This document shows, piece by piece, positions 2,656-42,070 of a stretch of 64,000 nucleotides of DNA (its first letter is position 1; each line of letters opens with the position of its first letter). Made by a program: the position numbers and the translations under genes. Source of the stretch: an uncultured Lentisphaerota bacterium (GTDB taxonomy: Bacteria; Verrucomicrobiota; Kiritimatiellia; CAIQIC01); assembly GCA_903912445.1 (NCBI GenBank), contig CAIWHP010000110.1, positions 15,612 through 79,611 of the forward strand, written 5' to 3'. The notes beneath the pieces are model-generated. The model was not told the origin of the DNA. It saw only the letters and a list, made by a program, of their open reading frames with translations, and ran no database searches.

Positions 2656-2701
2656 TTCCAAGGATTGGAAAATGTTTCGTCCCTTTTCCCAGGCCTTGGA
2701 A
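2656..2701. repeat. Pair of TTCCAAGG..TTGGAA-type AT-rich palindromes
   Basis: ttccaaggattggaaaa (2656-2672) and ttttcccaggccttggaa (2684-2701). Centres are about 30 bp apart, and the pair ends 21 bp upstream of the ATG at 2722. Confidence 0.7.
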
Positions 2702-2721
2702 CAGCCCTGAAGGAGACCCCC

Positions 2722-4362
2722 ATGAAAAAGATACTGTTCACCTGTCTGCTGCTCGCCAGTGCGGCTTTTGCCTACGAGCGCTTGCAAGGCCCGACCGAAC
2801 TGCTCTTCTGCGACAAGGCAAAGGCACTGCCCGGCTATGTGCTGTTCGGCGTCGGCAGCCGGACGTTCCTGCTCGACCTCGATGGCAAGGTGGTGCACAC
2901 GTGGCCCATCGGAACCAATCCGCACCTGCTCGATAACGGGAACGTTCTCGATGCGGGCAAGGACGACCCCAGCGGCTTCTCCGGTTTCAAGGAAGTGGAC
3001 TGGGACGGCAAGCAGGTTTGGGAATATACCGAGAAGCGCGAGGGCTATGCTCCGCATCATGATTGGGTGCGCATCTTCAACAAAAAGCTGAACGCGCCGA
3101 CCACGCTCTACATCGCCAATAAGTCTATCACCGATGCGCAAGCGCTCGCCGCCGGGGCCGACCCGAAGAATGGGCCGTATGACAACGGCCAGATGGACGC
3201 GATCGTCGAGGTGGATATGCAGGGCAATGTGATTTGGGAATGGTGCTTCTTCGATCACGTGGTTCAGGATGTGGATGCCAGCAAAGCAAACTATGTGGGC
3301 CAAGGCAAAACGGTGGCGGATTATCCAGGCCGTATCAACATCAACATGCCCGGCCGGCCGCTGAAGCGCGATTGGCTGCACTGCAACTCGATGGACTACA
3401 ACCCGGAATCCGGCCACGTTGTGATCAACTCCGTGCAGGGCGAACTCTATGTGATTGATCACGACGGGACGTTTGTCGCCGGCGATGCCAAGGCCGGCAT
3501 CGCCAAGGCCGCGGGACCGGCGGGCGATTTCCTGTACCGCTTCGGCGACCCGGCCCGCTACCAGCAGGGCGATCCGCCGAAAGTGATGGAGAACTGGGAT
3601 TCGGCCACCTCCGGCCATAAGCAGATGGGCGGCGCACACGATGTGCACTGGATTCACGCGGGCCTCCCCGGCGCGGGCCACCTGATGATCTTCAACAACG
3701 GGCAATATCTCTACCAGCGCACGCCGCAGTCCTCGGCGCTCGAAATCAATCCGTTCCTCGACGAGAGCGGACGCGACACCGGCAAGTATGTGAATCCGCC
3801 CGACGCCGGCTACCGGCGCGAGATCTATGACCACGACACGCACAACCAGCCGCGGCAGATCTCCAAGCAGATCGTCTGGAGCTATCGCTCCGTGAACAGC
3901 CACGGCTTCTTCAGCCACATCGGCTCCAGCGCGCAGAGGTTACCGAACGGCGGCGTCTTCATCTGCTCCGATACCGAGGGGCATTTCTTCGAGATCACCG
4001 CGAAGGGCGAACTGGCGTGGGAATACATCAACCCCGTCACGCGCGACGGCGCGGTCAAGACGCTCGGCGATGCGCTGCCGATGGTGAACTCCGCCTTCCG
4101 CGCCTATCGCATCGCCGCCGAGCATCCCGCGCTCAAGGGCCGTGACCTGACGCCGAAGGGCACGATCACCGAGCGCGCCGAGCAGGGGGTCGACACCTAC
4201 AAGCGCCGCCCACCGGAAGACCGCACAAAAGGCAAAGAGGGCAACGACGACCGCCGCGGCAAAGGCGGTAAAGGTGGTAAAGGAGGAGGTAAAGGTGGCG
4301 GACAAGGAGGTCAACGCGGTGGCGGCGATCGAGAAGACCGCCCGCCGCGCGATGGAAAGTGA
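2722..4362 (+). CDS. Secreted arylsulfotransferase-like (ASST family) protein, tandem paralog
   Basis: The internal ATG at 2722 gives a clean signal peptide (MKKILFTCLLLASAAFA). Same conserved blocks as 791..2539 (GYVLFG, HHDW, HCNSMDYN...VVINSVQGELYVIDH, LYRFGDP). Gly/Lys/Arg-rich tail ends in DRPPRDGK. Confidence 0.6.
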   Translation: MKKILFTCLLLASAAFAYERLQGPTELLFCDKAKALPGYVLFGVGSRTFLLDLDGKVVHTWPIGTNPHLLDNGNVLDAGKDDPSGFSGFKEVDWDGKQVWEYTEKREGYAPHHDWVRIFNKKLNAPTTLYIANKSITDAQALAAGADPKNGPYDNGQMDAIVEVDMQGNVIWEWCFFDHVVQDVDASKANYVGQGKTVADYPGRININMPGRPLKRDWLHCNSMDYNPESGHVVINSVQGELYVIDHDGTFVAGDAKAGIAKAAGPAGDFLYRFGDPARYQQGDPPKVMENWDSATSGHKQMGGAHDVHWIHAGLPGAGHLMIFNNGQYLYQRTPQSSALEINPFLDESGRDTGKYVNPPDAGYRREIYDHDTHNQPRQISKQIVWSYRSVNSHGFFSHIGSSAQRLPNGGVFICSDTEGHFFEITAKGELAWEYINPVTRDGAVKTLGDALPMVNSAFRAYRIAAEHPALKGRDLTPKGTITERAEQGVDTYKRRPPEDRTKGKEGNDDRRGKGGKGGKGGGKGGGQGGQRGGGDREDRPPRDGK

Positions 4363-4378
4363 TAGAATAACCTCCGTA

Positions 4379-5779
4379 ATGACAACCACTCCCTCCCAGC
4401 AAACACGCGCACCGCTCCACCGCCGCGATTTCCTCAAGCTAGTCGGCGCCGGTGCGCTGCTGTTTCCAATGGTTGCCAGCCTGGGGCTGCCCGTCTCGCA
4501 AAGCTCGGCTGGAAAAAGCGCAGGCTCCGCTGTCCAAGGCTTGGAAAAAGTCGGTGTGCAGAAGCCGAACATCATCCTGATCCTCGCCGACGACGTTGGC
4601 CTTGGCAATCTGGGTTGCACGGGCGGGCCGTTCAAGACGCCCCACCTTGATGCGCTCGCCGCGGGCGGCCTGCGCTTTTCGACCTGCTACGCGATGCCGC
4701 AGTGTTCGCCGTCGCGCTGCGTGGTGCTGACGGGACGGTATCCCTTCCGCACCGGTCTGTTGGGCAACCATGGGTATGAATCCGTGGATCCGAAGCGCGA
4801 GGTGATGATCCCGGGCGTGATGAAGAAAGCCGGGTACGTCACCGCCAGCGTTGGCAAATGGCATGTGGGACCGCTGGGCCCCGGCGGGTGGGGCTTCGAC
4901 GAGCATTTTCTCTTCCCCGGCAGCGGCCTCTACTGGCGCGACAAGAAGCCGCAGTCGAAGTATTACCATGTCAACGGCCAGCAGCATGACCTGCCCGAGG
5001 GCCAGTATCTGCCCGATCTCATGCACGAGTTCCTTGCCGGCTTCCTCGCGAAACACAAGGAGCAGCCGTTCTTCATCTACTATCCGATGGCGCACATCCA
5101 CGGCACCATCGTCCGCACGCCCGAGAGCAAGCCCGGCGCGGACGAAAAACAACTGTATACCGACAACCTCGAATACATGGATAAGCTCGTCGGCAAGTTG
5201 ATGGCCGAACTCGACCGGCTTGGCCTGCGCGAAAAGACGCTCGTACTCTTCAGCGGCGATAACGGCACCTCGGGCGGTTACTCCAAGATGGCGACCGTCA
5301 ACGGCCGCCTCCTCAACGGTCACAAGCTCAAACTGCTCGAAGGCGGCAGCCGCGTCCCGCTGCTCTGCAACTGGCCCGGCGTCACGCCGGCGGGGAAAAC
5401 CCTCAACGACCTGGTGGACTTCAGCGACTTTCTCGCCACGTTCGCCGATCTTGGCGGCGCGCCGCTGCCGGCGGGAGTTAAATTCGATGGCCACAGCTTC
5501 GCGCCGCAACTGCGCGGCGAAAAGGGCACGCCGCGCGATTGGATTTTCGTCCAGCTCGGGGGCAAGTGGTATGTTCGCGACCAAGGCTTCAAGCTCAACG
5601 AGAGCGGCGAACTCTTCGACATGAGCGAGGCCCCCTTCGCTGAGAAGCCTGCCACCAACGCCGCCGCAAAAGCCAAACTCCAAGCCGTCCTCGCCCAACT
5701 GAATCCCGCCGCCAGCGCTCATGACAAGGCCGGCGACACGGGGCAGAAGCGCAAAGCATCAGCCGGCGACGAGGAATAG
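4379..5779 (+). CDS. Sulfatase (formylglycine-dependent) with twin-arginine signal
   Basis: Tat motif HRRDFLKLVGAG. PNIILILADDVG and the CSPSR (C-x-P-x-R) sulfatase signature in MPQCSPSRCVVLTGRYP. Confidence 0.9.
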   Translation: MTTTPSQQTRAPLHRRDFLKLVGAGALLFPMVASLGLPVSQSSAGKSAGSAVQGLEKVGVQKPNIILILADDVGLGNLGCTGGPFKTPHLDALAAGGLRFSTCYAMPQCSPSRCVVLTGRYPFRTGLLGNHGYESVDPKREVMIPGVMKKAGYVTASVGKWHVGPLGPGGWGFDEHFLFPGSGLYWRDKKPQSKYYHVNGQQHDLPEGQYLPDLMHEFLAGFLAKHKEQPFFIYYPMAHIHGTIVRTPESKPGADEKQLYTDNLEYMDKLVGKLMAELDRLGLREKTLVLFSGDNGTSGGYSKMATVNGRLLNGHKLKLLEGGSRVPLLCNWPGVTPAGKTLNDLVDFSDFLATFADLGGAPLPAGVKFDGHSFAPQLRGEKGTPRDWIFVQLGGKWYVRDQGFKLNESGELFDMSEAPFAEKPATNAAAKAKLQAVLAQLNPAASAHDKAGDTGQKRKASAGDEE

Positions 5780-6115: not shown

Positions 6116-6134
6116 TTTCCACTGCTTGGAAAAC
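6116..6134. repeat. Single degenerate copy of the TTCCA...TTGGAA palindrome
   Basis: tttccactgcttggaaaac lies between convergent genes. Confidence 0.4.
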
Positions 6135-11492: not shown

Positions 11493-11543
11493 TTTTCCAA
11501 GGCTTGGAAAAATCCGTGCTTTCGGTTTCCAAGGCTTGGAAAA
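11493..11543. repeat. Pair of perfect TTTCCAAGGCTTGGAAA palindromes
   Basis: ttttccaaggcttggaaaaa (11493-11512) and tttccaaggcttggaaaa (11526-11543). Centres are 32 bp apart, and the pair ends 41 bp upstream of the ATG at 11584. Confidence 0.8.
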
Positions 11544-11583: not shown

Positions 11584-14500
11584 ATGAAAACCAAACCGCT
11601 GCGACTCGTCATGTGGTTCCCCCTCGCCGCCCTGTTGTTGGCGCCACCCGCACCGTTGCACGCTGCAGTTGCGCAACCCGCCACAGGCGCAACGCCCTAT
11701 CAGGGCTGGCAGCACTCGGGTTCGGTTTTCGTTCTCACCACACCGGAGGGCGCCCAGCTGCCGACCTCGGCAGCGGAGACCGATTTCCCGTTGCTGGTCC
11801 GGCTGCATAGGGATTTCTTCGACTTCAAACAGGCCCAAGCACAGGGCGACGACATCCGGTTTTCCACCAGCACCGGCGTGGCGCTGCCTTACCAGATCGA
11901 GGCCTGGGATGCGGCGCAGGGCGTGGCCAGCATCTGGGTGCGCGTCCCGACGATCAAGGGGAATGCTCGTCAGGAACTCAAGTTGTATTGGGGCAAGGCC
12001 GCTGCAGTCAGCGCATCCAGCGGGCCGTCGGTCTTCAATGCGGCAAACGGTTACGTGAGCGTCTGGCATATGAACGAGCAGGTGAAGGATGAAGTCGGCA
12101 CGCTCGACTCGAAGGACGTGGGCACAACGGCGACGGCGGGCATGGTCGGACCGGCGCGGCACTTGGCGGGTCGGCAGGGCGTTTTTGGCGGGGACAAGAT
12201 TCCCAACTATCCGGCAGGCTCGAGTTCGCACACCACGGAAGCATGGTTCCGGGCAGAGAAGCCGAACGTGACTGTTCTCGCCTGGGGCAACGAGCAGGCG
12301 CAGGGCAAGGTCGTGATGCATTATCGGAGCCCGCCTCACGTGTCCATGGATTGCTACTTTTCCGGGGCGAACGTCAAAAGCAGCAGCCCGCTCTCCGTGT
12401 CCGAATGGGTTCACGCGGTGCACACTTACCGGCAGGGGGAAACGCGGATTTACATCAACGGTGTCCTCGACGGCACCAATTCCGGCGGGACATCGCTCGC
12501 GATCAAAAGCCCGGCCAAGCTGTGGATCGGCGGCTGGTACAACCGCTACGACTTCGACGGCGACATCGATGAGGTGCGGATTTCCAGCGTCGCGCGCTCG
12601 GCCGACTGGGTGAAACTGGAATATGAAAACCAAAAACCGCTGCAAACCCTGACGGGCCCGGTGGTGCAGCCGGGGACTGCGTTTTCTGTCGCGCCGGCAC
12701 AGGCCACCGTGTTGGAGGGCCAGAGCGTGACGTTTGCCGCCGAGGCCGGGGGCGCGCAGAAGGTCTATTGGATACTCAAGCGCGACGGGCGGGAAAAACT
12801 TATCGCCGTGGATCGGTTCCGCTTCACGTTCGACGCGGGACGGGTGACCGGCGATCAGCCGGCGACGCTGCATTTCAAGGCGGTCTTTGCGAATGAAGTG
12901 AAGACGCGGGTCATCCCCATCCTCATCAAAGAAAACATCCCAGAACCGGTCTTCACCTTGAAGGCACCGGCATCATGGGACGGACGCGCAATGATCGAGG
13001 TGGTGCCGCAGGTCGCCAATACGGAGGCCATGCGGGCGAAAAACGCCGGTGAACTGAACTGCTCGTGGAACGTGGCGGATATCGCAGTGATCAAGCAGGC
13101 CGTGCCGGGGAAGCTCATCCTCCAACGTGCGCAGAACAGCGGGACGATGACGGTGACGGCGACGCTGTACAACGGCGGTCAGCCAGCCACGCAATCCGTC
13201 ACGATCAAGGTCAAAGAGCCGAAGCAGGACGCGTGGGTCACACGCACACCGGCCCAGGATGAGAAGCCGGAGGAAGGCCAGTTCTACGCCCGCAACGACA
13301 AGAACGAGGGCACGCTGTTCTATAACGGGACGCTGAACGAAGCCGCGGAATCGGTCTTCCTCAAAGTCTATGCCGACGGCAAGCTCTGCAAGAACGAAAG
13401 CCGCAAGCTGGCAGCCGACAAGGCCTATGCCTTCACGGTGAAACTCAAGCCAGGGCTGATCAAATATTCCGTGGAGTTCGGCGCCAAGACCGGCGGGCGC
13501 GAGGCGGTGCTGCACACCGTGACCAACCTCGTGTGCGGCGATGCCTATCTGATCAACGGACAATCCAACGCGTTGGCGACCGATACCCGCGAGGAAGCAC
13601 CGCCGTACAACAGCGATTGGATTCGCAGTTTCGGCAGCACGGCGAGTCATCCGCAAGGCGCGCGGTTGAAACTGTGGGGCCATGCGGTCTGGAAAAATCG
13701 CGACGGCGAGAAACTGCAGCTCGGCTACTGGGGCATGGAACTCGCCAAGCGGTTGGTGGAAAGCCAAAAGATTCCGATCTGCATCATCAACGGTGCGGTC
13801 GGCGGCACGCGCATTGATCAACACCAGCGGAATCCGTCCGACCCCGAGGACGTGACGACAATTTACGGCCGCCTGCTCTGGCGCGTGGAGCAAGCCAAAC
13901 TCACCGACGGCATCCGCGGCATCCTCTGGCACCAAGGCGAGAACGACCAAGGCGCCGACGGCCCCACCGGCGGTTACGGTTGGGAGACCTACCGGCGATA
14001 CTTCGTCGAAATGTCAGCCGCTTGGAAACAGGACTACCCGAATCTCCAGCACTACTACGTCTTCCAGATCTGGCCGAAAGCCTGTTCGATGGGCGTGAAT
14101 GGCTCCGACAACATGCTGCGCGAAGTGCAGCGCACTTTGCCAGCGCTCTATTCCCGCATGAGCGTCATGTCCACACTCGGCATCGAACCGCCCGGCGGCT
14201 GCCATTATCCGCTGACCGGCTGGGCGGAATTCGCGCGCTTGATTCAACCCCTGATCGAGCGCGACAACTACGCCAAGGTGTTCACCCTTTCCATCACGCC
14301 GCCCGATCTCAAGCGGGTCTATTACGCCAGCGCAAAGCAGAACGAGATCGTGCTGGAGTTCGACCAGCCGGTGAAAGGCGACGCTACCTTGGCGGGTGAA
14401 TTCTATCTCGATGGCGAGAAAAACAAGGTCGCCTCGTGCGTCGTCTCCGGGAATGTGGTTTTGCTCAAGCTGACGGCCCCCTCGACCGCGCAAAAGCTCA

Positions 14501-14610
14501 CCTACCTCGACAGCAAGTCGTGGAGCCAGACCCGTCTGCTCCGTGGCGAAAACGGCATCGCCGCACTCACCTTCTGCGGGGTCCCCATTCTGCCCAAGCC
14601 AGCGCTTTGA
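11584..14610 (+). CDS. Secreted DUF2341 / LamG (concanavalin-like) / sialate O-acetylesterase (SASA)-domain protein
   Basis: The internal ATG gives the signal peptide MKTKPLRLVMWFPLAALLLAPPAPLHA. DUF2341-like DFPLLVRL...DIRF...PYQIEAWD. LamG-like WVHAVHTY...IYINGVLDG...FDGDIDEVRIS. SASA-like CGDAYLINGQSNA...INGAVGGTRI...ILWHQGENDQG. Confidence 0.7.
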   Translation: MKTKPLRLVMWFPLAALLLAPPAPLHAAVAQPATGATPYQGWQHSGSVFVLTTPEGAQLPTSAAETDFPLLVRLHRDFFDFKQAQAQGDDIRFSTSTGVALPYQIEAWDAAQGVASIWVRVPTIKGNARQELKLYWGKAAAVSASSGPSVFNAANGYVSVWHMNEQVKDEVGTLDSKDVGTTATAGMVGPARHLAGRQGVFGGDKIPNYPAGSSSHTTEAWFRAEKPNVTVLAWGNEQAQGKVVMHYRSPPHVSMDCYFSGANVKSSSPLSVSEWVHAVHTYRQGETRIYINGVLDGTNSGGTSLAIKSPAKLWIGGWYNRYDFDGDIDEVRISSVARSADWVKLEYENQKPLQTLTGPVVQPGTAFSVAPAQATVLEGQSVTFAAEAGGAQKVYWILKRDGREKLIAVDRFRFTFDAGRVTGDQPATLHFKAVFANEVKTRVIPILIKENIPEPVFTLKAPASWDGRAMIEVVPQVANTEAMRAKNAGELNCSWNVADIAVIKQAVPGKLILQRAQNSGTMTVTATLYNGGQPATQSVTIKVKEPKQDAWVTRTPAQDEKPEEGQFYARNDKNEGTLFYNGTLNEAAESVFLKVYADGKLCKNESRKLAADKAYAFTVKLKPGLIKYSVEFGAKTGGREAVLHTVTNLVCGDAYLINGQSNALATDTREEAPPYNSDWIRSFGSTASHPQGARLKLWGHAVWKNRDGEKLQLGYWGMELAKRLVESQKIPICIINGAVGGTRIDQHQRNPSDPEDVTTIYGRLLWRVEQAKLTDGIRGILWHQGENDQGADGPTGGYGWETYRRYFVEMSAAWKQDYPNLQHYYVFQIWPKACSMGVNGSDNMLREVQRTLPALYSRMSVMSTLGIEPPGGCHYPLTGWAEFARLIQPLIERDNYAKVFTLSITPPDLKRVYYASAKQNEIVLEFDQPVKGDATLAGEFYLDGEKNKVASCVVSGNVVLLKLTAPSTAQKLTYLDSKSWSQTRLLRGENGIAALTFCGVPILPKPAL

Positions 14611-14663
14611 CAAGCAGGCCTGGACAGTTGTACAAACACCCACCCATCAACACAGGACCCTCC

Positions 14664-15386
14664 ATGCAGACAACCACATTGCGCCGCGCGGCGCTCCTGG
14701 CGGCCCTCGCGCTGCTGGCCGGCCTCCAACTCTTCGCGGCGAAGCCGCCGGCGACGCCACCTGACCTCACCAAGGACGGCGCGGTGGATCGCAAGCTGAC
14801 CTATAACCTCGGCTCCACGGGCATGCGCGGCTGGATCTTCACCAAGGCCGCGAATTTCTTCGAGAGCCAGCAGGGGCGGACCACGACGGCGAGCCGGCAG
14901 ATTCTCATCACCCACGTGGGCGCGGGCTCGCCTGCCGAGGGCGTGATGAAAGTGGACGATGTGATCCTCGGCGCCGGCGGCAAATTGTTCAGCGACGACG
15001 CACGCAAGTCACTCGCCCTCGCGATCACGGAGGCGGAGAAGGCGTCCAATCAAGGCCTACTGAAGCTCACGCGCTGGCGCTCTGGGAAAACCGACGAAGT
15101 GCAGCTCAAGCTGCGCATCATGGGCAGCTACAGCGCGACCGCGCCCTATGACTGTCCGAAGTCGAAGCTGATTCTCGCCGAGGCGTGCAAGGCGCTGGAG
15201 CGCGAACCGCTGAAGGAAGATTTGTGGGGCGCAATCAACGGCCTCGCGCTGATGGCGTCGGGCAAACCGGAGTACCTGCCGCGCGTGCAGGAGTTTGCGC
15301 GGAAGCTCGCGCCGACGACGCTAAAGCTGGAACTCAAGCATGGCATGGTCGTCTGGCAATGGGGTTACATCAATCTGTTCCTCTGA
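14664..15386 (+). CDS. Signal peptide + PDZ-like N-terminal fragment of a secreted protein; ends at an in-frame TGA
   Basis: MQTTTLRRAALLAALALLAGLQLFA. PDZ-like ILITHVGAGSPAEGVMKVDDVILGAGG. The stop at 15384-15386 is in frame with the next ORF. Confidence 0.5.
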   Translation: MQTTTLRRAALLAALALLAGLQLFAAKPPATPPDLTKDGAVDRKLTYNLGSTGMRGWIFTKAANFFESQQGRTTTASRQILITHVGAGSPAEGVMKVDDVILGAGGKLFSDDARKSLALAITEAEKASNQGLLKLTRWRSGKTDEVQLKLRIMGSYSATAPYDCPKSKLILAEACKALEREPLKEDLWGAINGLALMASGKPEYLPRVQEFARKLAPTTLKLELKHGMVVWQWGYINLFL

Positions 15387-15416
15387 GAGTATTATCTGCT
15401 CACCGGCGACAAGGCG

Positions 15417-27895: not shown

Positions 27896-27927
27896 CTGCG
27901 CCGCATAGTGTGTACTATGCGGCGCAG
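27896..27927 (+). terminator. Perfect 14-bp stem / 4-nt loop hairpin at the GC-content break
   Basis: ctgcgccgcatagt-gtgt-actatgcggcgcag. No U-tract follows, so terminator function is uncertain. Confidence 0.35.
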
Positions 27928-27967
27928 TAACTAAAGGATGTCGCTTAACAATAAAAGGGAACACGCA

Positions 27968-28414: not shown

Positions 28415-28516
28415 CGAATCGACTGGCGCAATGGCCCGACCATGCATCAAGCTGGCGGGCCATTTTTCTGCAATCAGATCTTCGAACTGGCGGAACCATG
28501 CGGCAGGTTTGCAAGG

Positions 28517-29215: not shown

Positions 29216-30329
29216 TCGTGTATAGCTCCTTCCAAACTGGGGTCAGATAATTTTCCGCAATCCAGCGTATTACAGGAACGCAGACCGCATCTCCAAAACC
29301 AAACAGAGCCTGGTTGATCGGGACAGTGATGCGAAAATCATCGGCACCCATCAGTCTCGCACACTCCCGGGGAGTGAGAAGCCGTACTGCATAGCGGCCT
29401 TTTCCGGCCGCAAAAAGTATCTGCCGCCCGCTCCCGCCACGTGGTGTTCGCAGACATCCGGCAATGCCATCGGTCCTTAACTCTGCCATGGAGCGAGAAT
29501 ATCGAACCCGGCGAAATACTGTGCCATATGTAATTTTTTTCCCGGAAATCATTTTGTCTGCGATTTTGCGGTGGCGCTCGCTCATTTGATTTAAAAGATA
29601 CTCTGCGCGCTCTTTGCTCCACCAAAACTCTGAACTCGAAGGAAGATCTTCGAGAATGCTACGCAGGTTAATATCTTTCTTCGCAATGCCCGGCAAATTG
29701 CGAATGGACCAGCGAATAAAGGGGTTTGAGAAAATAAAATCAGCTAGCGCAGGCGGGCGACACTGGCTCCCATAAAATGCTGAAGTTTCGCCGATTTTAT
29801 TGGCCTCAGTCTTTTCCTGTTTTCCAATCAGAAAGAGACGCTGCCGACTCTGCGGCACAAACAGACCGGCATTAATAATGAAGGCATCCACCGCGTATCC
29901 AAGATCATTAAGAGCCAAACACGCATCCCGGAAGTCTTGGCCCCCATGAGAGCTCAAAAAGCCTGTAACATTTTCGAGCATGATGAGAGGCGGTTTCTTT
30001 GACCGCATTGACTTCATCGCCTTGATAAAACCCCAAAACGCACCAGAATTTTCGCCCACAAGTCCGCGCCGAGCACCAGCAAGTGATAGGTCATTGCAGG
30101 GAAACGATGCGGTCGCGAGAGCAACAGTTGGAATATCGCTAGATGTGAGCGCGTGTACGTCGCCCAAATGAAAATGAGCAGATTCGGAGCCGAAGTGCCC
30201 TTCGTACATCTTCATTTTCGACTCTTCGATGTCATTCGCCCAGACAACATTCCATCCGGCTTGCTCCAATCCCATTCGCATTAGGCCGATGCCTGCGAAA
30301 AACTCAGCCACTGTTCGCTCATTATTCAT
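29175..30329 (-). CDS. dcm: DNA (cytosine-5)-methyltransferase
   Basis: Motif I EFFAGIGL, motif IV SFPCNDLSLAG, motif VI ENV, motif VIII QSRQRLFLIG, LTPRECARLMG, motif X GDAVCVPV. Confidence 0.95.
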   Translation of the reverse strand: MNNERTVAEFFAGIGLMRMGLEQAGWNVVWANDIEESKMKMYEGHFGSESAHFHLGDVHALTSSDIPTVALATASFPCNDLSLAGARRGLVGENSGAFWGFIKAMKSMRSKKPPLIMLENVTGFLSSHGGQDFRDACLALNDLGYAVDAFIINAGLFVPQSRQRLFLIGKQEKTEANKIGETSAFYGSQCRPPALADFIFSNPFIRWSIRNLPGIAKKDINLRSILEDLPSSSEFWWSKERAEYLLNQMSERHRKIADKMISGKKITYGTVFRRVRYSRSMAELRTDGIAGCLRTPRGGSGRQILFAAGKGRYAVRLLTPRECARLMGADDFRITVPINQALFGFGDAVCVPVIRWIAENYLTPVWKELYTNDDTEEKRTVRAI

Positions 30330-30729
30330 GACTTTTCAGCGCTTTCTCAATGCGAGCAACCATCGAATTTTTGCGAACCGCATCTTCCCAAATCCTGATG
30401 ACATTCCAACCCTTTTCTCTAAGCATGCGTGAGACCAATTTGTCCCGAGCCACATTACGCGCGATCTTTCGCACCCAATAACGGCGGTTGGTGTGTGGCA
30501 TGCGACACTTTCGCGGATGGCCATGCCAGAAGATGCCATCGACAAAAATGGCCAGCCGTGCGGCAGGAAAAACGAAATCTGGTTTCCCGAAGAGCGGGTA
30601 GTTTCTGCGCCAGCCTGTCAGCCTTCTTTCACGGAAGACCCGCATCAGCCGCTGCTCCGTCGAGGCGTTTCCTTGCGATTTGATCCGCGCCATGATCCTC
30701 GACCGCTCTTTTGGGCTGCAAGTGTCCAT
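30322..30729 (-). CDS. vsr: Very short patch repair (T:G mismatch) endonuclease
   Basis: RSRIMARIKSQGNASTEQRL...GWRRNYPLFGKPDFVFPAARLAIFVDGIFWHGHP. 8-nt overlap with dcm. Confidence 0.9.
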   Translation of the reverse strand: MDTCSPKERSRIMARIKSQGNASTEQRLMRVFRERRLTGWRRNYPLFGKPDFVFPAARLAIFVDGIFWHGHPRKCRMPHTNRRYWVRKIARNVARDKLVSRMLREKGWNVIRIWEDAVRKNSMVARIEKALKSHE

Positions 30730-30846
30730 GAGGATATTTTAAGTCTTTTGGACCTTTTGACCAGCGGGGAAGCAGTGTCTCCTGCTTCATTCTTCACGAC
30801 AAGAATTGCAAGGAAAGGCTCACCGTGTGCTGTCGCCCGCGTGGAT

Positions 30847-30925
30847 TTCCAAGCCCTGGAAAAAACGGCCTTTTCTTTTCCAAGGTCTGGAAAACCCGTC
30901 AGCTTGATTTGGCGGCGGCGAAGCC
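30847..30925. repeat. Right copy of the ~80-bp direct repeat (overlaps the true 3' end of the channel gene)
   Basis: See 27482-27561. Contains GFAAAKSS* and the stop of the gene 30899..32494. Confidence 0.75.
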
Positions 30926-33336: not shown

Positions 33337-35454
33337 TCATTTCTCCGTCAAACTCCAAACGCCGTCCCAGGCGGCGGGCGGCGCGGCCTGCAACGCGCGG
33401 CACTGGGCGGCGTAGGCCCGGGAGGCCGGATCGTCCGGCAGCCGCTCGAACGCGGCCAGCGCCGCGGCGAAGTCGCCTGTGTAAAACTGCGCCAGCGCCT
33501 GCTCGAAGGCGGCGAAGTGCGCGGGGCGCGCCTCGCCGGCCAGACCGGCGAGCTCATAGACGCGCACCGGCGCCTTGCGCCCGACAACGCGCAGCCGGCC
33601 CAGCTCGCGGCCGATGAAGCTCCCGCCGCCCTGCTGCCAGGTGGTCTCGGAGACCATCAGGTAGGTGCCGAACGCCTTGTTCGCACCCTCGAGCCGCGAG
33701 GCGAGGTTCGCCGCGTCGCCGAGGATCGTGTAGTTGAAGCGCTCGCGCGAGCCCATGTTGCCGACGATGACCGCGCCGGTGTTGAGGCCGATGCGCGCCT
33801 TGACCACCGCGCCGGTGCGCTGCTCGAACTCCGGGCGCAGCTCCGCCAGCCGGCGCTGGCAGCGCAGCGCGGCGCGGCAGGCGCGCGCGGCGTGGTCGTC
33901 CTGCCCGAGCGGCGCATTCCAGAACGCGACGATCGCGTCGCCGATGTATTTGTCGAGGTAGCCGCCCTCCGCCTGGATGCACGCGCCCATCTCCGAGAGG
34001 TAGGCGTTGAGCAAGGCGGTCAGCGTCGGCGGATCGAGCCGCTCGGAGAAGCCGGAAAATTTCTCGATGTCGGAGAAGAAAATCGACAGTTCCCGCTTCT
34101 CGCCGCCGAGCTGGAGCTTGCCGGGGTCGGCGATGATCTGCTCGATGACCTCCGGGCCGAGGTAGTATTTGAACGCCGACTTGATGAACGCCTTCTGCCG
34201 GCCTTCCGTGGCGTAGTTGACGACGACCGCGCCGATGAGGGTCAGCGCCACGGCGACCACGCCCGGAGCGACCGGCCACCACCAGCCCGCCAGGTAGCCG
34301 GCGAACCCGAGCCCGATGGCGAGCGCGAGGAACACCACGAACCCCAGCACGGTCTGCCACGAGTTGCGGCTGAAACGCCCCGCGAAGCCGGCACCCAGCG
34401 CGAGCAGCAGGGTGGCGAGGACCGTGGCGACATCCGGCAATTCCCGCAGGAATGTCCGCGACAACAGGTTGTCGAGCGCCGTCGCGTGGACCAAGACGCC
34501 GGGATAGACCTTGCTCATGGGCGTCGGCCGCAGGTCGAGCAAGCCCGGCGCGCTGAAGCCGAAGAGGGCGTAGCAGTCCTTGAGCGCGGCCGGTTCGATG
34601 GTCGGTTTTTTGCCTTCGCGCAGCAACAACTCGGAACGGATGATCTCCCGGACGTTGAAGGTCTGATGCGTGCCCGGCGTGCCGACAAAGCGCAGGATGG
34701 CGCGGCCGCGCTTATCGATCGGGAAACGCTGACCGTCGATGGTCAGCCAGCCCGGCGCAAGGGCGAGCCGGGCCTGCGGTTGGCCGGCCAGATAGGCGGC
34801 CAGGCCGAGCGAGGGCACGACATGGCCCGCGAACTCGCGCACAAGTGTCGCATGCCGATAAACACCGTCGAAAGAGGGCACGCCGTTGACATCGGCCAGC
34901 AGGGTCGCGTTGGTGGCGACGGCGGCGATGGGAAAGCTGGCGCGCGGCGCGCTTTTCAAGGCCTTGGAAAAACGGAGGGCATCCTGGTCCACGGTTTGAA
35001 AAGCCGGCAGCTTGAGCGGTACGGCAGCAGGCCAGTTGGTATACTCACCCTGCTCCTCGCCAAGGAAGGCGGCGCCGACAAAGGGCGCGCCGCGCCGGAT
35101 GGCGTCGCCCAGCGCCTGGTCATCGTTCACGCCCCAGCCGCTCGGCTCCGTAAAGAGCACATCGAACGCGACCGCCTTCGCGCCGGCGCGCTTGCAGAAG
35201 TCGAGCACGACACCATACGCCTCGCGCGGCCAAGGCCAGGTCCAGCTGTTCTCGTTCTTGCCCCAGTCCAAGCTGGGTTGATCGAGCAGGATCACCTTGA
35301 TCTGCCCGGTGGCAGGCGAGGGTTTGGCGAGGGCTCGGACGCGTGCCAGCCAGGCGGAATTTTCCAGCCAGTGCAACTGGCCACCCAACGACAGCGCCAG
35401 CGCGACAAGCGCGCCGCCGAGGCCGAGCAACACAGCATGGAGGAGCTTTTTCAA
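33337..35454 (-). CDS. CHASE2-sensor class III adenylate/guanylate cyclase
   Basis: N-terminal signal/TM plus an extracytoplasmic CHASE2-like region and 3-4 TM helices. Cyclase core: LSIFFSDIEKFSGFSE...YLDKYIGDAIVAFWNAP...RIGLNTGAVIVGNMGS..RFNYTILGDAANLASRLEG. Confidence 0.9.
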   Translation of the reverse strand: MKKLLHAVLLGLGGALVALALSLGGQLHWLENSAWLARVRALAKPSPATGQIKVILLDQPSLDWGKNENSWTWPWPREAYGVVLDFCKRAGAKAVAFDVLFTEPSGWGVNDDQALGDAIRRGAPFVGAAFLGEEQGEYTNWPAAVPLKLPAFQTVDQDALRFSKALKSAPRASFPIAAVATNATLLADVNGVPSFDGVYRHATLVREFAGHVVPSLGLAAYLAGQPQARLALAPGWLTIDGQRFPIDKRGRAILRFVGTPGTHQTFNVREIIRSELLLREGKKPTIEPAALKDCYALFGFSAPGLLDLRPTPMSKVYPGVLVHATALDNLLSRTFLRELPDVATVLATLLLALGAGFAGRFSRNSWQTVLGFVVFLALAIGLGFAGYLAGWWWPVAPGVVAVALTLIGAVVVNYATEGRQKAFIKSAFKYYLGPEVIEQIIADPGKLQLGGEKRELSIFFSDIEKFSGFSERLDPPTLTALLNAYLSEMGACIQAEGGYLDKYIGDAIVAFWNAPLGQDDHAARACRAALRCQRRLAELRPEFEQRTGAVVKARIGLNTGAVIVGNMGSRERFNYTILGDAANLASRLEGANKAFGTYLMVSETTWQQGGGSFIGRELGRLRVVGRKAPVRVYELAGLAGEARPAHFAAFEQALAQFYTGDFAAALAAFERLPDDPASRAYAAQCRALQAAPPAAWDGVWSLTEK

Positions 35455-37168: not shown

Positions 37169-38611
37169 ATGAAAACTGTATTTCGGGCTTGGATGGGATT
37201 GCTGCTGACGGCCAGCCTGGCCGGCGCAGCCGACGTGCCGTGGGCGGATGCCGAGGCGCGGCTGCGCGTCGTGCTGCAGCTCGCCCGCGAGAAGAACGAC
37301 CGGTCGCTGGTGGAGCGGGTGGCCGCCGCCCAGCGCGAGGTGCGGCGGCGGACGGCCGCAGCCGAGGAAACGGTGCGGGCGCTGGAGCGCGCGGTCGGCG
37401 TCGATCCCGGCGGCTGGAGCATGCACGGGCTGAAGATTTTCCGGCCGACGCCGGAGCTCCAAGCCCGGCGCGACACCCTTAACCGCGCGCTGGCCGCAGC
37501 GATGACCAACGATGCCGGCGCGGTGCAGGCGGCCTGTGCCGGGTTGCGCGCGGCGCTCGGCGAGCAGGCCGGCCTGCCCGATGCGCGGCGCGCGGGCGAG
37601 CGGGCCCTGCCCCACCCCCTCAGCCAGGCCGACGCGGTGCAGCTCTTCCTGGGCGCGCTGGCGTCCGAACCGAAAGGCGTGCGCGAGATCTGCGCGGGAC
37701 GCACGGTCGGCCACAACATGCTGCGCTTCTATGCCGACATCCTCCAGGGCGCCTGCGAAGCGCGGCCCGCCGTGCAAGCCGTCCACCCGGAGCAACTGCC
37801 GGAGCTGGACCGGCTGATCGCCGGGGCGTGCGGCATCCTGCTGCGCCATCAGCAGCCGGACGGTCTGTTTCCTTTCCCCGACCTGCGCGGCCAGAACCTC
37901 CGCTTCGGCGAGATGATCGCCCACCAGGTGGCCAGCCGCCCGGACGCCGTCAAGGATGGCTGGCTGGTACTGGCGGATCCCGACGGCGGCACCCAGTTCG
38001 ACACCGGCGTCTGCGGCAGCGCGCTGCTGGCGGCCGGCGCGGCCTTCCGGCGCGCGGACTGGACGGCGGCCGGGCTGCGCGCCGCCGACTGGGCCCTCGC
38101 CCAGCGCTGTGTGCCCAATTTCAACTACAATGCTTTTTCGGTCGGCCTGCTGGCGCACGCGTTCCAGGCCACCGGCGACACGCGCTACCTGGCGGGCGCC
38201 ATCCACAAAGCCGAAGTCGGGGTCCTGCCGGGCCAGGCGCCGAACGGCCGCTGGCTCGACCCGCACAACGCGCGCACGGTCTATCACCTCATCATCCTGC
38301 GCGCCCTGCACGACCTCTGGGCCGCGCTGCCGGCGGAGCGGGAGACCGAACGGGCCGCCATCGCACTTGCCGCAGGCAAGGCCGCCGGCGCGCTGCTGGA
38401 CGAGTTCGCAACGGCAGGCGTCACCACCAGCGCGCTGCGCGAGCTGCAGCGGCAGGCCGCCTTGCATCCGCGAGCCGACACCCGCCTGCCCGCGCTGCTC
38501 GAGCTCAACCGCGCCGTGATCCAGCAGAAATGCCGGCGCGACGGGCGCTTCAAGCTTGGCGTGGCGCTCACGGAACTGGCGGCGCTGACCGCCCCGCCCG
38601 CCGCGCGCTGA
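37169..38611 (+). CDS. Secreted hypothetical protein, alpha/alpha-toroid-like repeats
   Basis: Signal peptide MKTVFRAWMGLLLTASLAGA. Helical repeat sequence. No confident family. Confidence 0.5.
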   Translation: MKTVFRAWMGLLLTASLAGAADVPWADAEARLRVVLQLAREKNDRSLVERVAAAQREVRRRTAAAEETVRALERAVGVDPGGWSMHGLKIFRPTPELQARRDTLNRALAAAMTNDAGAVQAACAGLRAALGEQAGLPDARRAGERALPHPLSQADAVQLFLGALASEPKGVREICAGRTVGHNMLRFYADILQGACEARPAVQAVHPEQLPELDRLIAGACGILLRHQQPDGLFPFPDLRGQNLRFGEMIAHQVASRPDAVKDGWLVLADPDGGTQFDTGVCGSALLAAGAAFRRADWTAAGLRAADWALAQRCVPNFNYNAFSVGLLAHAFQATGDTRYLAGAIHKAEVGVLPGQAPNGRWLDPHNARTVYHLIILRALHDLWAALPAERETERAAIALAAGKAAGALLDEFATAGVTTSALRELQRQAALHPRADTRLPALLELNRAVIQQKCRRDGRFKLGVALTELAALTAPPAAR

Positions 38612-38864
38612 AGCCGCTTTGCATAAACCGCGCCCGGCGTCCGGCGCCCGCCCAGCGCGCCAAGGGCGGTTCCACCTCCAACTTTTTTCCGCAAATTCAA
38701 AAAACAACGTTGCTTTTTTTCGAGGTCCGGAAAATAAGTAGCGGTACCGGGTGCGGCAACCTGTCCGGGTGCACGGGTCCGCTTCTGCCGCGGAGCGGCG
38801 AATAAATCTGCGTGCGAGAAAAAATAAAGTTTCGAATGCAACGTTCTCACAAGCGAGGTAAGCC

Positions 38865-40715
38865 GTGTTGAATAAAATGATGACAGCTGCGGTGGTCGGA
38901 ACAGCGCTGGCGAGTCTCACCGCCGGCGCCGGTTGGTTTGGCCTGGGGGCGCCGCGTTACCTCTCGCCAACCCTCGTGGTCCCTTCCGGCGAAAAGAATG
39001 CCGTCTTCGTCACGGAGTTCGGCGCCAGCCGGATCGTCGAAACGGATATCGTCGCCGGCAAAGAGCGGCGCGTCATCAAGACCGCCTTGCCGCCGACCGG
39101 CCTGGCGTGCGATGCCCAGCACCAGCTCCTCTTCGTGACCACCGATGGGCCGGACGGCCAGGTGCTCGCCTTCGAGCTCGCCTCCGGCCGCCAGGCCTTC
39201 GCGCTCGCCGCCGGCCATACGCCGATGGCGCCCGTGCCCACCGCCGACGGCAAGACGCTGTTCGTCTGCTATCGCTTCAACAACGTGGTCGCCGTCTTCG
39301 ATCTCGCCGCCCGGAAGGAAAGCGCCCGGATCGCCGTGCCGCACGAGCCGGTCGCCGCCGCGCTGACGCCGGACGGCCGCCTGCTGGCGGTGGCCAACCA
39401 TCTGCCGGCCGCGCCGGCGAGCGGCGACTATGTGGCGGCGCAGGTCACCCTGATCGACCCGGCCACCAGGACCGTCGTCGCCAATGTCACGCTCCCCAAC
39501 GGCTCGACCAGCCTGCGCGGGCTCTGCATCTCGCCCGACGGGCGCTTTGCCTACGTCACCCACACGCTGGGCCGCTATCAATTGCCGACGACGCAGCTGG
39601 AGCGCGGCTGGATGAACACCGCCGGCCTGTCCATCATTGACCTGGCCGCCCGCAAGCTGCTGACGACGGTGCTGCTCGACGACGTGGACCTGGGCGCCGC
39701 AAACCCGTGGGGCATCGCGGTCACCGCCGACGGCCGCTGGCTCGCGGTAGCGCACTCCGGCACACACGAGGTCAGCGTGATCGACCGCGCCGGCATGCAT
39801 ACCAAGCTCGACGCGATCGCGGCGGGCAAGAAGGTCTCCAACGTCTCCAACACCTTGGAGGATGTGCCGAACGACCTCAGCTTCCTCGTGGACCTGCGGC
39901 GGCGGATCAAGCTCGCCGGCAACGGCCCGCGCGGGCTGGCGATCCTCGGCAACGACGCCGTGACGGCCCAATATTTCTCCGACGACCTCGCGGTGGTGGC
40001 GCTCGACCCGGCGGTGCCCCACCCCGCCCGCAGCGTGACCCTCGGCCCGCGCGCCGCGCTCTCCACGGAGCGCAAAGGCGAAAAGTATTTCCATGATGCG
40101 CACTTCTGCTTCCAGCAATGGCAGAGCTGTGCGAGCTGCCATCCCGACAGCCGCGCCGACGGACTCAACTGGGACCTGCTGAACGACGGCATCGGCAACC
40201 CGAAGAACACCAAGAACATGCTGCTGACCCACACGACGCCGCCCTCGATGAGTCTCGGGGTCCGCGAGGGGGCCGAGGCCGCGGTGCGCGCCGGCCTCAA
40301 GTTCATCCAGTTCGCCGTGCGGCCGGAAGAGGACTCACAGGCGATGGACGAATACCTCAAATCCATGACACCGGTGCCCAGCCCGTTCCTCGTCAACGGC
40401 AAGCTCAGCCCGGCGGCGAAGCGCGGCGAAAAGGTCTTCAAGCAGGCGGGTTGCAGCACCTGCCACCCCGCGCCGCTGTTCACCAATTTGCAGGAGTATG
40501 ACCTCGGCCTCGCCAAGGGCATGGACGCGGGCAAGCCGTACGATACGCCGACACTCATCGAGTGCTGGCGCACCGCACCCTATCTCTACGACGGCCGCGC
40601 TTATACGATGAAGGAAGTGCTGACCACTTGTAATCCCAACGACAAACATGGCGTCACATCCAAGCTGGCGCCCGCAGAGTTGGACGACCTCATCGCCTAC
40701 ATACTTTCCCTATGA
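38865..40715 (+). CDS. Beta-propeller (YVTN/lactonase-like repeats) fused to a di-haem cytochrome c peroxidase-like domain
   Basis: Repeated LF(V/A)..... propeller strands. Two CxxCH haem motifs (CASCHPD, CSTCHPA). Confidence 0.7.
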   Translation: MLNKMMTAAVVGTALASLTAGAGWFGLGAPRYLSPTLVVPSGEKNAVFVTEFGASRIVETDIVAGKERRVIKTALPPTGLACDAQHQLLFVTTDGPDGQVLAFELASGRQAFALAAGHTPMAPVPTADGKTLFVCYRFNNVVAVFDLAARKESARIAVPHEPVAAALTPDGRLLAVANHLPAAPASGDYVAAQVTLIDPATRTVVANVTLPNGSTSLRGLCISPDGRFAYVTHTLGRYQLPTTQLERGWMNTAGLSIIDLAARKLLTTVLLDDVDLGAANPWGIAVTADGRWLAVAHSGTHEVSVIDRAGMHTKLDAIAAGKKVSNVSNTLEDVPNDLSFLVDLRRRIKLAGNGPRGLAILGNDAVTAQYFSDDLAVVALDPAVPHPARSVTLGPRAALSTERKGEKYFHDAHFCFQQWQSCASCHPDSRADGLNWDLLNDGIGNPKNTKNMLLTHTTPPSMSLGVREGAEAAVRAGLKFIQFAVRPEEDSQAMDEYLKSMTPVPSPFLVNGKLSPAAKRGEKVFKQAGCSTCHPAPLFTNLQEYDLGLAKGMDAGKPYDTPTLIECWRTAPYLYDGRAYTMKEVLTTCNPNDKHGVTSKLAPAELDDLIAYILSL

Positions 40716-41851
40716 AAATCACCCGACAACACTCTGCAACCGGCGACGTTGTGACGCTCGAGCGCGGCGCGCTGCGCGAACGCTACATCACCGGGCGCCA
40801 CAGCGGCGCCAACGCGCTCGCCATCTTCAACGACTTCCCGCCGGCCTCCGGCAACATCGCCATGCAGCTCGTCTTCGGCGGCTGCGGGTTCCACGACGCC
40901 GCGCGCGCCAAGATGGCCGGCGCGGGCTGGCCGCTGCTCTGGGTCCAGGGCGACGTCTGTTCCGGCTCGCACGTGGCGGGCCTGCAGGCCTTCGTGCTCG
41001 ATGGCATCCCCGTCCAGCGCATCCACCTGGAAAACGGCGTGGTCGGCACCATGTGGTCCGATGACGATGCCGACTACTGCCTGCTCGCCGGGATCCTGCC
41101 CCTCGATGTGAAGGCCGACCGCTACCAGCAGACGCGCGAGTGCTTCGAGCGCATCGAGGCGGGCGTGAAAAAGGCCGGGATGGATTTCAGCCACGTTGTC
41201 CGGACGTGGTTCTTCCTCGACCACCTGCTGGACTGGTACGACGTGTTCAACAAGGCCCGCACCACCTTCTTCAACGAACGCGGGGTGTTCGAGCACCTGG
41301 TCCCCGCCAGCACCGGCATCGGCGCGGGCAACCCGGCCGGCGCCGCCCTCTCCTGCGGTGCCCTCGCGATCCGGCCGAAGCAGGGCCAGGTCAGCATTGA
41401 GGAAGTCTGCTCGCCCCTGCAGTGCCCGGCCACCGCCTACCGCAGCTCCTTCGCCCGCGCCGTCGAGATCGGCTATCCCGACCGCCGCCAGCTGATCATC
41501 TCCGGCACCGCCAGCATCGCGCCCGAAGGCGAGACCCTGTACGAAGGCGATGTGGTCAAGCAGATCCACCTGACCTTGGACGTGATCGAGGCGATCCTCA
41601 AATCGCGCGGCATGGACTGGCCGGACACCGTCCGCGCCGTCGGCTACTTCCACGACATCACCGAACTGCCCCAGTTCAACGAGTGCCTGCGCGCCCGCGG
41701 CATCGCCCAGTTCCCCATGGCCCCGGCGCACGCCACGGTCTGCCGGCACGACCTGCTCTTCGAGATGGAGCTCGACGCCATCGTGCCCGCAGATAAGCAA
41801 ACTTCCTGTCGGCCCTGTTCTTGCGGGGCAAAGCAACCGTTGGCCGTGTAA
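40712..41851 (+). CDS. RidA/YjgF-fold protein, FkbO/Hyg5 chorismatase-like
   Basis: VVRTWFFLDHLLDWYDVFNKARTTFF and the C-terminal RidA-like LIISGTASIAPEGETLYEGDVVKQIHLTLDVIEAIL. ATGA overlap with the upstream gene. Confidence 0.45.
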   Translation: MKITRQHSATGDVVTLERGALRERYITGRHSGANALAIFNDFPPASGNIAMQLVFGGCGFHDAARAKMAGAGWPLLWVQGDVCSGSHVAGLQAFVLDGIPVQRIHLENGVVGTMWSDDDADYCLLAGILPLDVKADRYQQTRECFERIEAGVKKAGMDFSHVVRTWFFLDHLLDWYDVFNKARTTFFNERGVFEHLVPASTGIGAGNPAGAALSCGALAIRPKQGQVSIEEVCSPLQCPATAYRSSFARAVEIGYPDRRQLIISGTASIAPEGETLYEGDVVKQIHLTLDVIEAILKSRGMDWPDTVRAVGYFHDITELPQFNECLRARGIAQFPMAPAHATVCRHDLLFEMELDAIVPADKQTSCRPCSCGAKQPLAV

Positions 41852-42019
41852 CAGCAGCTCTGTCGTTTATGCGCGGGCAGGGTTGCTATCCGGACCACAT
41901 CCGTCTGCCACGGTGCAGCCGGGCTCGTTGATCCCGGCCGAACCCCACCCGCTGGCGCCGGGACCGGCGCCCCGGCCACAGCGAAGCGAGCCATACAACG
42001 GGAAACTGGCGCGTTGACA

Positions 42020-42070
42020 TTTTCCAAGGATTGGAAAAAAGTGCCTGCGGCTTTTCCAACCCTTGGGAAA
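42020..42070. repeat. Pair of TTCCAA...TTGGAA palindromes
   Basis: ttttccaaggattggaaaaaa (42020-42040) and ttttccaacccttgggaaa (42052-42070). Centres are about 32 bp apart, and the pair ends 17 bp upstream of the ATG at 42087. Confidence 0.75.

Follow-up and report, generated by a model that had tools for sequence, protein, structure and literature searches.

Phased arrays of an AT-rich palindrome occupy gene boundaries, and some coding sequences, in Kiritimatiellae

A 64,000-nucleotide stretch of contig CAIWHP010000110.1 (hereafter the window), which comes from an uncultured lake-water bacterium and has a GC content of ~63%, carries many copies of an AT-rich palindrome of 19 bp. We found that these copies belong to a high-copy family shared with other genomes of the class Kiritimatiellae, that they stand singly or in arrays of two to five with centres mostly 31-32 bp apart, and that the arrays fill gaps between genes whatever the orientation of the genes. 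The explanation we lean towards, with somewhat less than even confidence, is that the copies are sites in duplex DNA for a dimeric protein, which would bind cooperatively to the three-turn arrays and mark gene boundaries in any orientation as a roadblock, an insulator or a topological element.

The palindrome was first noticed in a reading of the letters without database searches (the sequence-only reading), and it is real. Its consensus with flanks is TTTTCCAAG-S-CTTGGAAAA, within which the best-kept bases are TTCCA-N5-TGGAA. When the window was searched for TTCCAA-N3-TTGGAA with at most one mismatch, 16 matches were obtained against 0.10 expected, and none of 100 shuffles reached 16; the variant with four central nucleotides (N4) gave 4 matches against 0.08 expected. 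The window showed no excess of the half-site by itself (1 found, 1.4 expected). Between positions 2656 and 42069 there are 17 good copies and two degenerate ones (4464 and 38716), in agreement with the count of about 18 made by eye, which had missed 4532 and 34954 and whose coordinates were right to within ~2 nt with the TT flank included. Five doublets and one triplet are formed (Table 1), and their centres lie 30.5-32 bp apart, bearing out the regular spacing that had been described. No stop codon occurs within the palindrome in any of the six frames. The polysaccharide-synthesis cluster at 49-64 kb of the window contains no palindrome arrays, and an Rfam scan of the window matched only a tRNA and no family corresponding to the palindrome.

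To define the spread of the family, we performed an exact-match scan for the 17-mer TTTCCAAGGCTTGGAAA with one genome per species (185,579 species), which returned at least 104 stretches. Among the matches listed, a few metagenome-assembled genomes (MAGs) labelled Lentisphaerae, Verrucomicrobia or Pontiellaceae dominate; one of these, CAISWQ01, is syntenic with the window at ~82% identity, and protein homologues place the carrier group in Kiritimatiellae. CAISWQ01, SCQF01 and the genome of the window are all rich in copies. In the loci from other genomes, likewise among the matches listed, 158 of the 202 centre-to-centre gaps shorter than 200 bp measure 31 or 32 bp, with minor peaks at 20-21 bp and 41-43 bp, and the arrays comprise 64 singles, 82 doublets, 21 triplets, 10 quadruplets and 2 quintuplets. 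Other lineages keep the same arms with a free central triplet and use a period of 21 bp or 41-43 bp. Since periods of 21, 31-32 and 41-43 bp are all multiples of ~10.5 bp, the sites lie in helical phase. A phage association was rejected, because 2.9 million viral contigs held only nine isolated, chance-level matches and no arrays. The literature searched contained no description of the motif or its generalised forms and no link between Kiritimatiellae and such repeats, and a survey paper on repetitive extragenic palindromic (REP) sequences does not mention the phylum.

One array stands apart. At a contig end, downstream of a response-regulator gene, locus L078 (positions 1-370) consists of 9-10 tandem units of 41-43 bp, each with a palindrome and with conserved spacers. 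This array is a true tandem repeat, unlike those of the window's lineage. A centromere or iteron reading of the 9 x 41-bp array was discarded, its neighbours being ordinary chromosomal genes (response regulator, DUF3500, YmdB, XseA).

The placement of arrays relative to genes was measured over 0.62 Mb with home-made gene calls based on third-position GC (GC3) and a codon model. Array density, to be read in relative terms, was 1.97 per kb in co-directional, 1.99 in convergent and 1.23 in divergent gaps, and was ~25-40 times lower in coding than in intergenic DNA. Arrays occupied 24 of 41 convergent, 17 of 48 divergent and 71 of 267 co-directional gaps. They begin 1-12 bp past the stop codon in 27 of the 71 occupied co-directional gaps, where a cluster of arrays also ends 15-21 bp before the next start, i.e. 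against the ribosome-binding site, and many convergent gaps consist of the array alone, from stop codon to stop codon. Arrays adjoin or sit in housekeeping genes, including tpiA, opp, hydF, thiD, pabB and others. Loci anchored on a permease gene, which provide an unbiased check, displayed the same mix of contexts. The arrays are without bias towards 5' regions or any functional class.

This distribution bears directly on the proposal of the sequence-only reading that the palindromes are operators of one dimeric transcription factor controlling a regulon of secreted glycan-degrading enzymes. Four arrays in the window (2656, 11495, 19178 and 42022) indeed lie 17-42 bp upstream of signal-peptide genes, namely ASST-2, the LamG/SASA gene, the gene at 19203 and the esterase-GH pair; distances of 17-41 bp had been given for three of them, and we measured 20, 42 and 17 nt. 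A doublet spacing of ~32 bp is also typical of cooperative regulators. However, all four arrays are in co-directional plus-strand gaps, so that each directly follows one gene besides preceding another, and the other window copies are in convergent gaps or in coding DNA. Across genomes, moreover, array density is similar in all gap classes, and unrelated housekeeping genes have arrays beside or within them. Arrays abut stop codons, whereas pathway operators would stand upstream of linked genes and be absent from 3' regions, and a rough extrapolation of the window density leads to many hundreds of copies per genome. The family is therefore most likely not a pathway-specific operator, and a glycan regulon can be given next to no credence. 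What stands of the proposed cooperative regulator is its geometry, as both the spacing and the arms described below fit binding by dimers; its role in a regulon and the 5' bias do not.

An alternative at the RNA level is that the palindromes act as hairpins in 3' untranslated or intercistronic regions, where they would terminate transcription, protect 3' ends from exonucleases or be processed by RNase III, comparable to the REP sequences of the E. coli malEFG operon. The placement just past stop codons and the many filled convergent gaps would suit this role, as would the scarcity of canonical terminators in the window and the in-gene array found early in oppB, just past the binding-protein gene. 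In addition, the doublet is predicted to fold as a single hairpin of 18-20 bp (-24 to -27 kcal/mol, z-scores -2.4 to -4.3), and the copy at 22628 forms the apex of a canonical terminator. The pattern of conservation nevertheless argues for a different substrate. The arm positions (TTCCA / TGGAA) carry nearly 2 bits of information and the 12-13-nt spacers ~0, and among 312 copies double changes in the arms occurred at the rate of independence for every pair, with no compensation. When copies were oriented by their flanking genes, G·U-compatible and A·C changes were equally frequent (39 and 40), and neither the palindromes nor the centres of a doublet covaried with each other (77 of 145 complementary, 72.6 expected). 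The flanks do not extend the stem and provide no GC clamp, and no T-run follows the arrays (16% T over the next 10 nt). Whereas intrinsic terminators have a GC-rich stem and a U-tract, the stem here is AT-rich, with 22617-22654 as the sole exception. Arrays in the 17 divergent gaps and periods in multiples of the B-DNA helical repeat have no rationale in RNA either. We thus regard an RNA element as quite improbable. The arm-covariation check that the sequence-only reading had proposed for telling an RNA hairpin from a protein site accordingly lends nothing to its suggestion of hairpin pairs in 5' leaders.

Taken together, arms conserved without covariation and periods set by the helical repeat suggest that a symmetric protein reads two half-sites in duplex DNA and that neighbouring dimers lie on the same side of the helix. 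Two other readings of the doublet were set aside. By eye, a sigma-54 or sigma-70 promoter is inconsistent with the GG/GC spacing, which varies among copies, and a -10 element would land on TTCCAA; a sigma-70 scan gave no match at the arrays. Hairpins of the CsrA type, with GGA, were ruled out because the conserved part is the arms and not the loop.

Several doublets lie in genuine coding sequence, with a GC3 typical of coding DNA to either side. In NamZ, the doublet takes the place of a native segment, and no change in length is seen relative to two homologues in the PDB. In an oppB-like permease, arrays occur at nt ~377-455, in the part for a periplasmic-loop domain, at the same position across genera. 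One clade of this permease has two copies 32 bp apart that encode FQGLEK...FSKxWK, and another has three copies 31 bp apart that encode FPxxGK...FSKxWKK...FQxLEK; FPxxGK, FSKxWK and FQxLE(K) are three reading frames of one palindrome. We checked the permease DNA in six loci from different genera with a GC content of 56-64% (for L092, a value of 63-64% deduced from its genome group). In all six the arms are perfect or almost perfect, and their codons end in A or T, although the GC3 of the gene is 0.68-0.86. In three of the six, from the L105, L107 and L108 lineages, the in-gene copies are the only palindromes within 14-21 kb. Among 120 permease homologues, 36 have two or more of the frame signatures, placed at fixed offsets of +10/+11 residues; Kiritimatiella glycovorans has no copies in the 21 kb examined. 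The first permease palindrome stands in a different register in the two clades (31 vs 32 bp) with no indel in the protein, indicating that the site was re-made and not simply inherited. The permease arrays thus reflect selection at the nucleotide level, acting in place.

Three in-gene triplets (L108 10377-10453, L105 3569-3645 and L107 10380-10456) have central triplets that are homogeneous within a genome, as in L108 (TGA/TGA/TCA), and differ between genomes, which may point to concerted evolution or to a preference of the putative binding protein that is specific to the lineage. In the permease homologues P0002, P0006, P0007 and P0009, additional low-complexity insertions (e.g. LAGPSTP / LRAGPSTT) are located exactly between two in-gene palindromes, and the segment between palindromes therefore seems to be a hotspot of length change. 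Apparent doublets in the coding sequence of an HrpB-like helicase (L073) and a dihydroorotate-dehydrogenase-like gene (L024) were rejected as what we take to be chance resemblance to native motifs.

Copies within genes might also be expected if the palindrome were the DNA uptake sequence of a naturally competent lineage, built up by biased uptake and recombination (molecular drive) like the uptake signal sequences (USS) of Pasteurellaceae and the DNA uptake sequences (DUS) of Neisseria. Uptake sequences do occur in coding regions, a palindrome would serve in either orientation, and this mechanism would account for a motif that is extremely over-represented and lineage-specific and whose coding copies arise with no indels, in certain frames and where the protein is tolerant. 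Yet USS and DUS are common in genes as well as in non-coding DNA, whereas the motif here is 25-40 times rarer in coding DNA. Uptake sequences are not known to form phased arrays like those described here, with up to five copies, and the three loci with a perfect in-gene triplet and no other copy in 14-21 kb also count against this reading. An uptake sequence is very improbable.

The behaviour of orthologous gaps bears on a further rival, that of a selfish palindrome of the REP or REPIN type, in which the doublet would be the replicative unit, formed as one long single-stranded hairpin and handled by a RAYT-like Y1 transposase, and copies would pile up where they are tolerated. REPINs, following Bertels and Rainey in 2011, are said to be REP doublets mobilised by RAYT transposases. 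A family that is high-copy, largely extragenic and rich in doublets of fixed spacing, with each doublet predicted to fold into one hairpin as above, matches this picture, as do the presence of decayed copies and a palindrome free of stop codons in six frames. Copy number also differs between orthologous gaps: the ASST-1/ASST-2 gap has two copies in the window and four in L027, and the RidA-like/esterase gap has two in the window and, in L087, one that is wedged between stop codon and ribosome-binding site. Furthermore, gaps minus their arrays are as long as array-free gaps (convergent, 72 vs 72.5 bp; divergent, 235 vs 220 bp), as if the arrays were added DNA. In both orthologous gaps, however, the palindromes are perfect and the spacers unalignable. 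The 94 doublets of one genome include no identical or near-identical pair and no shared spacer: spacers agreed at 11 of 12-13 positions at best, in 3 pairs, and those next to each other were no more related. Nor is there a GTAG or CGTC head, or covariation within or between palindromes, which a hairpin substrate that has to pair would need. The arrays within genes are fixed across genera, some of them with no other copies nearby, and the change of register of the first permease palindrome involved no indel; the periods of 21, 31.5 and 42 bp would be left unexplained as well. Direct repeats of 4-8 nt flanking the copies were no commoner than in controls, so that the target-site duplications that accompany the terminal inverted repeats of miniature inverted-repeat transposable elements (MITEs) are not seen. 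The arrays are thus old and are kept for their palindrome and spacing, with slow gain and loss and no sign of recent copy-and-paste. We consider a selfish element unlikely, although more plausible than an RNA or uptake element. The dispersed repeat that the sequence-only reading had offered as its own alternative agrees with the data in part: the even distribution over gap classes comes close to what it had named as the mark of a REP-like repeat, whereas the preferred spacing persists and MITE-type duplications do not occur.

It is more plausible, in our tentative judgement, that the family consists of lineage-specific, high-copy 19-bp sites that a putative symmetric (dimeric) protein would read as double-stranded DNA. 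With centres 31-32 bp, or three helical turns, apart (two or four turns in some lineages), bound dimers would share one helix face and might oligomerise, or wrap the DNA, in the manner of Lrp-type and other nucleoid-associated proteins. Arrays would be placed in non-coding gaps whatever the orientation of the genes and, where no gap is available, would sometimes be written into tolerant parts of coding sequence. The nucleoprotein complex might act as an orientation-independent roadblock, as a transcriptional or topological insulator, or as a recruiter of topoisomerase, a counterpart of enterobacterial REP sequences and bacterial interspersed mosaic elements (BIMEs). What the data show directly is the motif with its phasing, placement and pattern of selection, from which binding, oligomerisation and role are inferred. 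A bolder version, which we hold to be doubtful, is that Kiritimatiellae possess a dedicated architectural DNA-binding system, whose phased sites would be protein-mediated terminators or insulators or topoisomerase docks in place of the scarce intrinsic terminators, and for which selection would override codon usage and shape the peptides FQGLEK, FSKxWK and FPxxGK in oppB.

Several points weigh against binding by a dimeric protein. Searches by tblastn with E. coli Lrp and HU (HupA) found no match for a binding protein in ~0.96 Mb of related sequence, in which any one related genome is represented to about 6%, and the centre of the site is AGSCT and not AT-rich, unlike that of Lrp sites. Some copies decay, such as that at 38716 compared with its perfect orthologue, and copy number varies between orthologous gaps, which implies that many individual sites are dispensable, as expected of selfish repeats. 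No RNA runs cover the window or the related locus L027, and three metatranscriptomes of the same study contributed only a few stray fragments. Because the gene calls are home-made, some context classes may be wrong, and because the pooled loci were chosen for a perfect 17-mer, absolute densities are inflated and only relative figures count.

The individual copies in the window are listed in Table 1, with genes called from GC3 and Pfam.

Table 1. Palindrome copies in the window and their gene context.
Feature	Position	Strand	Description	Context
Doublet	2656-2670, 2686-2701		first copy with perfect arms; second copy N4 variant, 1 mismatch	between ASST-1 stop (2539) and ASST-2 ATG (2722)
Degenerate and good copy	4464-4478, 4532-4546		2 mismatches; 1 mismatch	inside sulfatase gene, in / just after signal peptide
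Single copy	6117-6131		1 mismatch	convergent gap between sulfatase gene (ends 5779) and minus-strand thioredoxin-like gene (ends 6221)
Doublet	11495-11509, 11527-11541		both perfect, 32 bp apart	26 bp past Lcl_C stop (11468); 42 bp before LamG/SASA ATG (11584)
Triplet	19178-19192, 19210-19224, 19242-19256		spacing 32 and 32 bp	26 bp past AXE1-like stop (19151)
Intrinsic terminator	22617-22654	minus	15-pair stem and T-run; apex is palindrome 22628-22642	serves OMP-like gene 22675-23304
Doublet	27482-27497, 27514-27528			in left copy (27482-27561) of 80-bp direct repeat
Doublet	30847-30861, 30878-30892			6 bp beyond stop (30899) of minus-strand mscS-cNMP gene; in right repeat copy (30846-30925)
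Single copy, N4 variant	34954-34969		1 mismatch; encodes FSKALK	inside minus-strand CHASE2-cyclase gene
Decayed copy	38716-38734		TTTTCGAGGTCCGGAAAA; orthologue in L087 is perfect TTTTCCAAGGTTTGGAAAA	in gap 38611-38865
Doublet	42022-42036, 42054-42069		32 bp apart	between RidA/chorismatase-like gene (ends 41851) and esterase ATG (42087)
Isolated copy	49031-49045		perfect arms, no T/A flanks; rare A/T-ending codons	within KOW motif GPFQGLEG of NusG-like gene

Most of the placements described in the sequence-only reading held, and some had to be revised. Copies 2 and 3 of the triplet do overlap the first ATG at 19203; the next gene starts either at this ATG or at TTG 19251, and its possible N-terminus is overlapped as well. 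The degenerate copy suspected at 38716-38734 is a decayed orthologue of the perfect copy in L087. Single copies had been placed downstream of genes; this is true of 6117 and 22628, both in convergent gaps; the copies at 4464/4532 and 34954 are in coding sequence, the good copy at 4532-4546 encoding VQGLEK. The copy at 22628 had been called the stem of a terminator, and it does form the apex of one, which serves the minus-strand gene 22675-23304 and is located between convergent genes. The pairs at 27482 and 30847, which had been listed as upstream arrays, are upstream of no gene: they lie in a duplicated 80-bp stretch downstream of minus-strand mscS-cNMP. This direct repeat, 86% identical, carries the last mscS-cNMP codons together with the doublet and brackets an inserted low-GC island. 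The island insertion having duplicated the 80 bp, the two doublets are one array seen twice, and before the insertion it lay in a convergent gap. Family membership of the copy at 49031-49045 is uncertain.

Some further features were noted beside these copies. The island itself (27562-30846, ~50% GC) encodes a TIR-domain protein (27938-28414), a GIY-YIG nuclease (28517-29215), a C5 cytosine methyltransferase (29175-30329) and a Vsr endonuclease (30322-30729); no integrase was seen in it, and it looks like a restriction-modification or defence island. Not far to its left, directly past the stop of an RluD-like gene, a 21-bp unit (AGTCAGAGAGCAGAGGTCAG) is present in two tandem copies (27182-27222). 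The sulfatase gene (4379-5779) starts at ATG 4379, 17 nt past the ASST-2 stop, with a twin-arginine (Tat) signal, HRRDFLK; one palindrome copy falls in the hydrophobic core of its signal peptide and the other just after the signal peptide. Next to the first doublet, the ASST-1/ASST-2 gap contains two GC-rich hairpins (2590-2655) that make a longer inverted repeat (GGGGCGCAGTCTTGCTGCGCCC ... GGGTGCAGCAAGATTGCACCCC); this segment is missing from the orthologous gap of L027, which has the two extra palindrome copies instead. The NusG paralogue (48626-49177; NusG N-terminal domain and KOW) has two-component genes as neighbours, together with a polysaccharide-biosynthesis cluster of ~14 kb that lies on the opposite strand (49264-63952). 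Among the few strong canonical terminators of the window are 45342-45367 and, on the minus strand, 48150-48179, where a 13-pair GC-rich stem is followed by T8; the latter is in a 780-bp stretch (47846-48626) in which no gene was called and a small gene or RNA may have escaped annotation. Finally, DUF6288 is split over adjacent open reading frames (ORFs) at 14436-17144, with profile positions 1-170 in 14436-15386 and positions 183-402, ahead of HEAT repeats, in 15417-17144; the gene may be truly split, or a frameshift, an interruption or an error in the sequence may have broken it up.

If a protein does read the arrays, they would represent a genome-wide bacterial 'punctuation' that operates through a sequence-specific, helically phased nucleoprotein complex, unlike RNA hairpin terminators and RAYT-mobilised REPs, and they would show plainly that a signal of non-coding DNA can be imposed on proteins and persist through long periods of evolution. 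The motif has practical uses in addition. In Kiritimatiellae MAGs it serves as a marker of gene boundaries and accounts for spurious ORFs and for unusual peptides (FQGLE, FSKAWK, FPRLGK) in the annotation, and it provides a bait sequence for an abundant DNA-binding protein in uncultured, ecologically important degraders of sulfated polysaccharides.

Among known systems, REP sequences and BIMEs, which are bound by gyrase, IHF and Pol I, resemble the family in being short, high-copy palindromes, mostly non-coding, frequent just past stop codons and in co-directional and convergent gaps, clustered in regular arrays, and credited with roles in topology, termination and mRNA stability. A REP is an imperfect palindrome of 20-40 nt with a GTAG or CGTC tetranucleotide at one end (PMC3733652). 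The palindrome here, by contrast, is perfect, 19 bp long and AT-rich against a genome of 63% GC, with a symmetric T4...A4 extension in place of such a head; its stem does not covary, its unrelated spacers have a fixed length, its spacing is in helical phase, and its arrays are conserved within coding sequence. With REPINs it shares a sharply preferred doublet spacing and doublets that can form one long hairpin, and its singlets could be decayed doublets; it differs in its arrays of 3-5 copies, in the conservation of in-gene arrays across genera, in having no near-identical copies that share a spacer, and in the independence of the two palindromes, which are under no pairing constraint. Repeats of clustered regularly interspaced short palindromic repeats (CRISPR) measure 23-50 bp with spacers of 26-72 bp and lie at one or a few loci with cas genes, whereas the family here has 19-bp repeats, spacers of 12-13 bp and 175 arrays of 1-5 units at separate loci in ~0.62 Mb.

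Palindromic repeats also occur in frame within protein-coding genes in Rickettsia and cyanobacteria. Rickettsia palindromic elements are insertions of ~100-150 bp that add peptide segments, unlike the NamZ doublet, which left the length unchanged. The cyanobacterial HIP1 is an 8-mer spread evenly through coding DNA and maintained at the nucleotide level across orthologues, with a function that is unsettled, and it does not form phased arrays as the present family does.

In geometry, the arrays resemble the sites of some regulators that bind cooperatively. Lrp is a global nucleoid-associated regulator that controls opp in E. coli. Proteins of its family bind cooperatively to clusters of palindromic 13-15-bp sites two or three helical turns apart and wrap the DNA (PMC2995911). 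The arrays described here have the same arrangement of palindromic sites; they differ from the degenerate, AT-centred Lrp sites in being near-perfect with a G/C centre (A-G-S-C-T), in their far higher copy number, in their location at gene ends and in convergent gaps and not at promoters, and in that no Lrp-like protein has been linked to them. NrdR boxes and tandem sites of the NtrC type likewise pair two palindromic boxes ~31-32 bp, or three turns, apart for cooperative binding, but these are promoter-proximal and serve small regulons, whereas the family described here carries the same three-turn spacing genome-wide and independently of gene orientation.

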